Positions 14,013 through 14,364 of a stretch of DNA of 15,836 bases are shown here, piece after piece. The stretch lies in the IMG/VR virus record IMGVR_UViG_2645727970_000008. One strand, written 5' to 3'. Under the pieces are notes generated by a model. It was not told the DNA's origin. It saw only the letters and a program-made list of their open reading frames with translations, and did not search any database. The DNA is from a virus (Duplodnaviria; Heunggongvirae; Uroviricota; Caudoviricetes). The translations under genes and the position numbers were made by a program. Every line of letters begins with the position of its first letter. The first letter of the stretch is position 1.

Positions 14013-14189
14013 TCATTCATCGCCCCACTCATCACAATATGCTTCGACCGGAGTTTTTCCTGCTTCATAATCATCACGCCATGCTTCAGCATCAGCAGCA
14101 CTGCCACCACATAACTCTGCATAGTCCATTAACAGTTCATGCCATTCTTCAAAACCGACGTTGTATTTAGTTGAACCAAAATCAGCCAT
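14013..14189 (-). CDS. Small highly acidic protein (58 aa), translationally coupled to the upstream acidic ORF
   Basis: Manual translation MADFGSTKYNVGFEEWHELLMDYAELCGGSAADAEAWRDDYEAGKTPVEAYCDEWGDE. ATG overlaps the upstream stop (ATGGCTGA). 16 Asp/Glu against 3 Lys/Arg/His. Confidence 0.55.
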   Translation of the reverse strand: MADFGSTKYNVGFEEWHELLMDYAELCGGSAADAEAWRDDYEAGKTPVEAYCDEWGDE

Positions 14190-14364
14190 TTTGTTCTTCC
14201 TCTTCGTCTTTTATTTCGTGATATGAGTAATTGCAGTAGTTAAAGAAAATATCTTTTGCTTCGTCATGTATTTCATCAGGCGTCGCATCATCATCCACTT
14301 CGAATTCATCCTCGAAATCTCCACCGGCTATTCCCGTTTCAATAATTATTTTAAACTTTCGCAT
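14182..14364 (-). CDS. Small highly acidic protein (60 aa)
   Basis: ATG ORF MRKFKIIIETGIAGGDFEDEFEVDDDATPDEIHDEAKDIFFNYCNYSYHEIKDEEEEQNG, about 20 Asp/Glu. Preceded by the GGAGG-hairpin leader. Confidence 0.6.
   Translation of the reverse strand: MRKFKIIIETGIAGGDFEDEFEVDDDATPDEIHDEAKDIFFNYCNYSYHEIKDEEEEQNG

Follow-up and report, generated by a model that had tools for sequence, protein, structure and literature searches.

Two small, highly acidic open reading frames of an E. coli prophage, from two apparently unrelated families of mobile elements, as candidate inhibitors of nucleic-acid-binding proteins

Two small open reading frames, designated here A and B, are found near one end of the window, i.e. 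the whole 15,836 nt stretch of viral DNA that was analyzed. Both are genuine genes under strong purifying selection. From the distribution of their homologues it is concluded that they are probably independent modules from two unrelated families. By analogy with known acidic phage proteins, it is plausible that A and B are DNA mimics that block host defences. The reading preferred here, although tentatively, is that each of the two acts on its own, by binding to and blocking a nucleic-acid-binding host or defence protein. The two families are already catalogued and uncharacterised, and do not represent a new kind of system.

Table 1. Positions in the window of open reading frames A and B and of the sequence features adjoining them
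Feature	Position	Strand	Description
ORF A	14182-14364	minus	60 aa, net charge -15; member of Pfam DUF7167 and PHROG 1997
ORF B	14013-14189	minus	58 aa, net charge -13; without Pfam family, PHROG 519
A/B overlap, 8 nt ATGGCTGA	14182-14189	minus	stop of A lies inside codons 1-3 of B; putative translational-coupling junction
Decayed third gene of the coupled chain	13651-14016	minus	ATG overlaps the stop of B (ATGA, 14013-14016); 40 aa here
Shine-Dalgarno GGAGG followed by a 6-7 bp G+C hairpin with a GAAA loop	14372-14392	minus	exact 21-mer present twice in the window
TAGTTAA spacer, 7 nt, between leader and ATG of ORF A	14365-14371	minus	

The original prediction, which was based on the letters of the window, described two adjoining and overlapping open reading frames of 60 and 58 aa, each with roughly one third Asp and Glu and few basic residues, and with estimated net charges of -15 and -13. 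Both are present (Table 1), and computation reproduces the two charges. A contains 20 Asp and Glu and five Lys and Arg residues, and B contains 16 and three. Thus the paucity of basic residues holds for both and the acidic fraction of one third holds for A (0.33), with B somewhat lower at 0.28. Of the 16 open reading frames of the window that were measured, A and B are the most acidic, the other 14 having acidic fractions of 0.19 or less. The prediction also proposed that the pI and the structure be computed. The pI is 4.05 for both proteins. Charge per residue is -0.25 in A and -0.22 in B, which is similar to that of T7 Ocr (gp0.3; -0.24); the value for T7 gp5.9 is -0.15.

A set of 161 related loci yields 47 distinct DNA variants, of which 44 are full-length. 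When the annotated frames are read in these 44, A has a pN/pS ratio of 0.11 and B one of 0.09, and the other frames give 0.6-3.0. Non-function is excluded by this frame-specific purifying selection. It effectively refutes the suggestion that the two are non-functional leftovers of a decaying prophage, to which we assign almost no probability; the pseudogene that follows B and the premature stops in a few copies of A (three variants) could be read that way, but homologues across phage families and plasmids and confident predicted folds for both proteins also speak against it.

The acidity itself is conserved. In E. coli, Klebsiella and Enterococcus phages the homologues of A have net charges of -11 to -16, and in an alignment of eight sequences acidity is kept from E. 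coli to Enterococcus phages at about 16 positions (9, 19, 22, 24-26, 30-31, 35, 38, 50 and 54-57). For representatives of the B family the median is -9 and the values extend from -15 to +1, so that some distant members are not acidic. Ten or so positions of B (14, 15, 33, 35, 39, 42, 49, 53, 54 and 57) carry an acidic residue in 60% or more of 64 diverse representatives. Since acidity is kept across the alignments of both families, the charge is a selected property, though one that distant relatives of B can lose.

A is a full-length member of Pfam DUF7167 (PF23768), with 55.1 bits against a cut-off of 24.4 and E = 7.9e-15 over profile positions 1-60 of 60, and it also matches PHROG 1997 over positions 1-57 of 57 (E = 9e-31). 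Klebsiella homologues pass the DUF7167 cut-off and the Enterococcus homologue falls below it (19 bits). The AF2 model of A is confident (mean pLDDT 85) and displays a beta-hairpin (strands 2-10 and 15-23), a helix (29-43) and an acidic C-terminal tail, the tail being of low confidence and modelled as flexible. A Foldseek search of the PDB with this model gave no significant match (best E = 0.61). A is found in 35 phage records, which consist of E. coli temperate phages, Klebsiella phages including Guernseyvirinae, and Enterococcus phages (Herelleviridae where taxonomy was checked), in 15 plasmid records, and in only two of 185,579 species-representative genomes. A role as partner or regulator of an exonuclease was considered and rejected, as there is no consistent link: in the Klebsiella Guernseyvirinae A lies directly upstream of, and overlaps, a PD-(D/E)XK/DUF2800 nuclease gene, but the "exonuclease" that adjoins A in the Enterococcus phages is a DUF3850/ASCH protein and no nuclease.

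B shows no match to Pfam or NCBIfam families. It matches PHROG 519 (E = 9.1e-22), although only at profile positions 76-137 of 143. PHROG 519, PHROG 1997 and DUF7167 are all catalogue entries without an attached function, and A is a full-length member of its families whereas B aligns with part of a profile. The AF2 model of B (mean pLDDT 87) is a confident three-helix bundle with helices at 13-27, 34-42 and 47-55, and Foldseek against the PDB gives no significant match (best E = 4.3). Weak signals consist of homeodomains in the Foldseek results and of single family members that match HTH_23, Terminase_5 and DUF5419. The predicted topology of B thus hints at a resemblance to helix-turn-helix domains; binding to DNA in the usual mode would be impossible, however, because of the net charge of -13. 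The DUF5419 signal comes from one of the 64 B-family members (E = 3e-4), and the homologue of B in a Morganella phage is annotated as DUF5419, but neither B nor this homologue matches the DUF5419 model (PF17441) at E values up to 1. Positions F13, W16, L20, A24, W37, Y41, G44 and the aromatic residues at 51 and 55 of B are near-invariant.

Phage records with B number 198; most are of Ackermannviridae that infect Salmonella, Klebsiella and Shigella, and Morganella and Enterobacter phages are also represented. A further 561 records with B are plasmids, of which 516 are conjugative. The copies of the prophage, the Ackermannviridae and the plasmids show 45-60% identity. An exhaustive search of 1.8 billion representatives gave 91 clusters at 50% identity; the profile used had taken in the C-terminal tail of a long family member, P0181, so this number includes a few matches to that unrelated tail, and the top two matches are irrelevant. 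Most proteins with the B domain are stand-alone and 50-65 aa long. Larger ones are rare, and one is a fusion to a Mu GemA-like regulator. In the Ackermannviridae B is situated just downstream of the major capsid gene, a position that is not obviously early, and in large MOBH Klebsiella plasmids it lies within a long run of small overlapping open reading frames. The operon order in IncI2 plasmids is a CaiF/GrlA-type regulator, DUF1187, B, SPFH, NfeD and type IV secretion genes. A copy of B in mcr-1/CTX-M IncI2 plasmids (NZ_CP031550.1; locus L176, 8348-10157) is 86% identical and has an 8 nt overlap with DUF1187. B was also considered as a leading-region gene and rejected, as it is on the leading side but about 20 kb from the oriT of the IncI2 plasmid and beyond repA, which is too far for such an assignment; the oriT was placed by inference, adjoining mobC and relaxase-like genes, and the leading side was assigned by analogy with IncI1.

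The overlap of the two open reading frames that was claimed originally is found: the junction reads AAAATGGCTGAT, which gives the 8 nt overlap ATGGCTGA, with the TGA of A falling within the first three codons of B. The spacing is identical in 160 of 161 IMG/VR loci that hold both genes, and A and B adjoin in 1654 complete E. coli genomes. Such constant adjacency, together with the likeness of A and B in charge and size, could indicate an obligate two-subunit complex in which coupling keeps the amounts equal. This is improbable, as the paired loci are near-identical copies of one inherited block and do not represent independent events, and proteins with charges of -15 and -13 would repel each other. 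At 40-70% identity there are four loci with A only and four with B only. Plasmid records also show the imbalance (B 561, A 15). The IMG/VR scans yielded E. coli copies that are all near-identical, and an alignment of artificial A+B concatenations served as the query by which more distant members of both families were obtained in a single search. The pairing is specific to the E. coli prophage lineage, and distant homologues occur separately.

In plasmids, too, B has an 8 nt overlap with the gene before it, but these genes, for DUF1187 and a membrane protein, are unrelated, and the partner upstream of B is different in every element type. The upstream products coupled to B all end in Gly (DUF1187 ...TYG, membrane protein ...KHG). 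A relationship between A and DUF1187 was rejected (hhalign probability 0.2%), which also argues against the obligate complex. Thus the putative coupling junction belongs to B, and A is one among several possible upstream neighbours. Because each gene occurs alone at greater divergence and B is coupled to unrelated genes elsewhere, A and B are best regarded as independent modules.

Judged from its gene content, the window is the nin-like delayed-early region of a Qin-like lambdoid E. coli prophage, between the replication genes and hokD/RusA. The Qin-like prophage also carries DicB and YdfABC. In a RefSeq locus with 99.8% identity the gene order, in the direction of transcription, is a Cro/CI-type regulator, a YdaT-like gene, replication proteins, several small hypothetical genes, DUF4014, further small genes, a 118 aa protein, A (DUF7167), B (hypothetical), a frameshifted pseudogene, hokD, DUF968, RusA, DUF1133 and lysis genes. 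A query of 601 bases that surrounds the pair has matches in 2576 of 5426 complete E. coli genomes, and 1654 of these genomes (about 30% of the total) hold at least 80% of the query, i.e. the A-B block, in up to seven places per genome. On the coding strand from 15836 to about 13000 there are no terminator-like sites, and the sole promoter-like match is weak and lies at 15525-15554, inside an open reading frame of 70 aa. That frame (15462-15674, minus strand) is a third small acidic open reading frame of the same operon, with a net charge of -7, a match to PHROG 4659 and no Pfam family; it was rejected as a distant relative of B (hhalign probability 0.4%). The gene just upstream of the pair (14458-14871, minus strand) encodes a basic protein (net charge +6, PHROG 1621) with a weak zinc-ribbon match (TFIIB-type, E = 2e-4, below cut-off). 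Downstream of the pair there is a hokD-type type I toxin gene (12937-13092, minus strand), followed by a terminator-like hairpin (12851-12868, minus strand), the only one on the coding strand in that part of the window.

The third gene of the chain is decayed, with a frameshift and an internal stop annotated in the near-identical RefSeq locus. Elsewhere it is intact at the same ATGA junction; the product has 171 aa in 47 related loci, and in others it is Ea22-like and 196-270 aa long. Since A and B are intact in the window beside the decayed gene, they are not dependent on it. The early-left operon of ArgO145 and Stx2a phages contains A and B together with several of these small neighbours, placed between the RecT/exonuclease genes and int, and an Ea22-like gene is next after the A-B block. 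The occurrence of the block in the nin-like region here and in the early-left operon there indicates a mobile accessory cassette.

These settings bear on the main rival explanation, which is that A and B serve the mobile element itself. They would be small subunits that adapt or regulate replication, recombination, the choice between lysis and lysogeny, as genes of the exo-xis/Ea22 region do, or plasmid transfer and establishment. The partner would then be an element-encoded or a conserved housekeeping protein. We consider this possible but rather unlikely. The strong conservation of B, with its invariant aromatic core of W16, W37 and Y41, does suggest a specific partner, and the IncI2 operon places B between a CaiF/GrlA-type regulator and type IV secretion genes. 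The chaining of the prophage pair to Ea22-like genes, the single fusion of a B domain to the GemA-like regulator and the nuclease gene directly downstream of A in Klebsiella phages point in the same direction. However, no neighbour is conserved across contexts: the adjoining Enterococcus gene encodes DUF3850/ASCH in place of an exonuclease, the upstream partner of B changes with the type of element, and the Ea22-like/171 aa gene is decayed in the window beside an intact A and B.

The preferred reading, in which each protein blocks a nucleic-acid-binding protein, draws on analogy with small acidic phage proteins. T7 Ocr inhibits type I restriction and BREX as a mimic of DNA. It resembles A and B in being the product of an early gene and in having no enzymatic motifs, but it is a 117 aa all-helical dimer, unlike A and B. 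T7 gp5.9, an inhibitor of RecBCD, and phi29 p56, an inhibitor of uracil-DNA glycosylase, are minimal dimeric DNA mimics. With 52 and 56 aa, both are stand-alone acidic phage proteins of about 50-60 aa and resemble A and B in size. The gp5.9 gene overlaps the next gene (gene 6 exonuclease), as A overlaps the PD-(D/E)XK nuclease gene in Klebsiella phages. The folds differ: gp5.9 is reported to be a coiled-coil dimer (PMC9836394), whereas a beta-hairpin plus helix is predicted for A and a three-helix bundle for B. TifA (Orf65) of Enterococcus phage phi47 inhibits type IV restriction enzymes, is 21% acidic with an electronegative surface, and binds and inhibits DNA-binding defence nucleases without obviously copying the geometry of DNA (PMC11322646). 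It is a small acidic phage protein like A and B, but its SH3-like fold is unlike those predicted for them (PMC11322646). The Enterococcus homologues of A are in Herelleviridae and, as far as tested, not in phi47. We think that TifA may be the best-fitting functional model for A and B.

Similarity to the known proteins does not extend to sequence. Neither A nor B matches the Pfam ocr model (PF08684) at E values up to 1, and T7 Ocr as positive control matches it at 1.3e-64; BLASTP of A and B against Ocr shows only acidic stretches of 14-28 residues with E values of 0.04 or greater. There is likewise no match of either to the gp5.9 model (PF25708), for which gp5.9 itself gives 2.4e-6, or to the model of the T7 Gp2 RNA polymerase inhibitor (PF16857; beta-beta-alpha-beta fold). 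Absence of these matches is informative since the Pfam library contains and detects all three proteins. Ocr is absent among the Foldseek PDB matches listed for A and B, solved structures of DNA-mimic and anti-defence proteins (ArdA, Arn, anti-CRISPRs and others) show no significant fold similarity to either, and profile searches of PDB sequences gave nothing credible. A, B and three neighbouring proteins show no match to PADLOC models at E values up to 1. No aca-type helix-turn-helix gene adjoins the pair, which is followed by the decayed 171 aa/Ea22-like gene and then hokD, and no known anti-defence gene is a consistent neighbour of A or B across the contexts examined. The literature searched contains no mention of DUF7167, DUF1187 or the two RefSeq accessions, and the main text of the EVADES, TifA and accessory-gene screen papers does not cover the A and B families.

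The claim that the composition is typical of DNA mimics is thus borne out in part. The high net negative charge, low pI (4.05) and conservation of charge across homologues are those of the DNA-mimic class and the charge density is like that of Ocr, but no sequence match or significant fold match to known mimics is found. There is no match of either protein to an enzymatic or DNA-binding family.

The binding mode, target class and anti-defence effect that we infer are as follows. A and B would be independent stand-alone accessory proteins of mobile elements. In the E. coli prophage lineage their genes happen to be linked within a delayed-early operon, the stop codon of one overlapping the start codon of the next. 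Each is predicted to fold as a tiny rigid domain with conserved surface acidity and, by stoichiometric binding, may occupy the positively charged nucleic-acid-binding surface of its target. This would be electrostatic decoy action in the manner of Ocr, gp5.9, p56 and TifA, exerted soon after infection or induction. Stoichiometric binding is the most likely mode, given that A and B have no catalytic motifs and are too acidic for nucleic-acid binding.

Decoy action is supported by the finding that these are real, constrained genes with confident compact folds, conserved acidity and a charge density at the level of Ocr. Their accessory-gene settings, in a long nin-like run of small genes that all point one way and in an early-left operon near Ea22-like genes, are in keeping with it, as are the spread over unrelated mobile elements and the lack of a match to enzymatic or DNA-binding families. 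It is weakened by the lack of similarity to known mimics and of a consistent anti-defence neighbour, by non-acidic distant members of the B family, and by the position of B downstream of the major capsid gene in Ackermannviridae. B is also unusually conserved for a decoy, which could equally mean a specific housekeeping partner inside the element. Many small acidic phage proteins have other roles, and this too counts against a decoy.

The B family is common to lambdoid prophages, virulent Ackermannviridae, mcr-1-type IncI2 plasmids and large Klebsiella conjugative plasmids, and DUF7167 (A) is common to phages of Gram-negative and Gram-positive hosts. As a bolder and doubtful proposal, B, as an acidic three-helix bundle of about 55 aa whose Trp/Tyr core is invariant, would be an undescribed broad-host inhibitor of a conserved enterobacterial nucleic-acid-binding defence or repair protein, and DUF7167 would be another inhibitor family, independent of the first. 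Its presence in both phages and plasmids makes B the more interesting of the two. A and B are reasonable and inexpensive candidates for an anti-defence screen. Should either be an inhibitor of a defence or repair system, the known set would gain a family that is both very small and very common, with a reach that extends to the E. coli genomes holding the block and, for B, to the IncI2 plasmids by which mcr-1 is spread. Such small inhibitors have uses in the design of phage therapy and as molecular tools.

A GGAGG-hairpin leader had been noted before the first open reading frame and is indeed present, reading GGAGG-CCGCCC-GAAA-GGGCGG-TAGTTAA-ATG. The second exact copy of the 21-mer, against a chance expectation of none, is at 15436-15456 on the minus strand and lies before the DUF4014 gene (15211-15429). 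In the loci fetched, the leader precedes only DUF7167 and DUF4014 genes. The DUF4014 gene product belongs to PHROG 1832, "released from the phage upon host infection". The hairpin is seen in both the MFE and the centroid folds of the intergenic RNA, and 94% of cells are paired across 18 leader variants. Covariation consists of one compensatory change (G-C to A-U) and several G-U changes, and shuffled controls score equally well. If it forms, the hairpin would shorten the distance between Shine-Dalgarno and ATG from 19 nt, or 23 nt on a hairpin-free count that takes in the last bases of the stem-loop, to an effective 7 nt. Hairpin-bridged ribosome-binding sites occur in T4 genes 38 and 25, and the likeness to these consists of a predicted stable hairpin between GGAGG and ATG. 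Unlike the T4 sites, the hairpin here doubles in some genomes as the 3′ coding end of the upstream gene.

In some E. coli genomes (proteins P0154, P0159, P0161 and P0186) the stop before the ATG of A is lost, with TAGTGAAATG in place of TAGTTAAATG. The loss fuses A to an upstream DUF7446 or Ea22-like protein, and the hairpin is translated as the C-terminal sequence ...QEAVRKGGSE. Two intergenic stretches of the window, 14410-14472 and 15675-15739, are 81-90% identical. At 15675-15739 the stretch finishes with a normal ribosome-binding site and with the ATG of the 70 aa open reading frame. The copy upstream of A keeps the GGAGG without a start codon, and looks like a gene-junction remnant after deletion or recombination.
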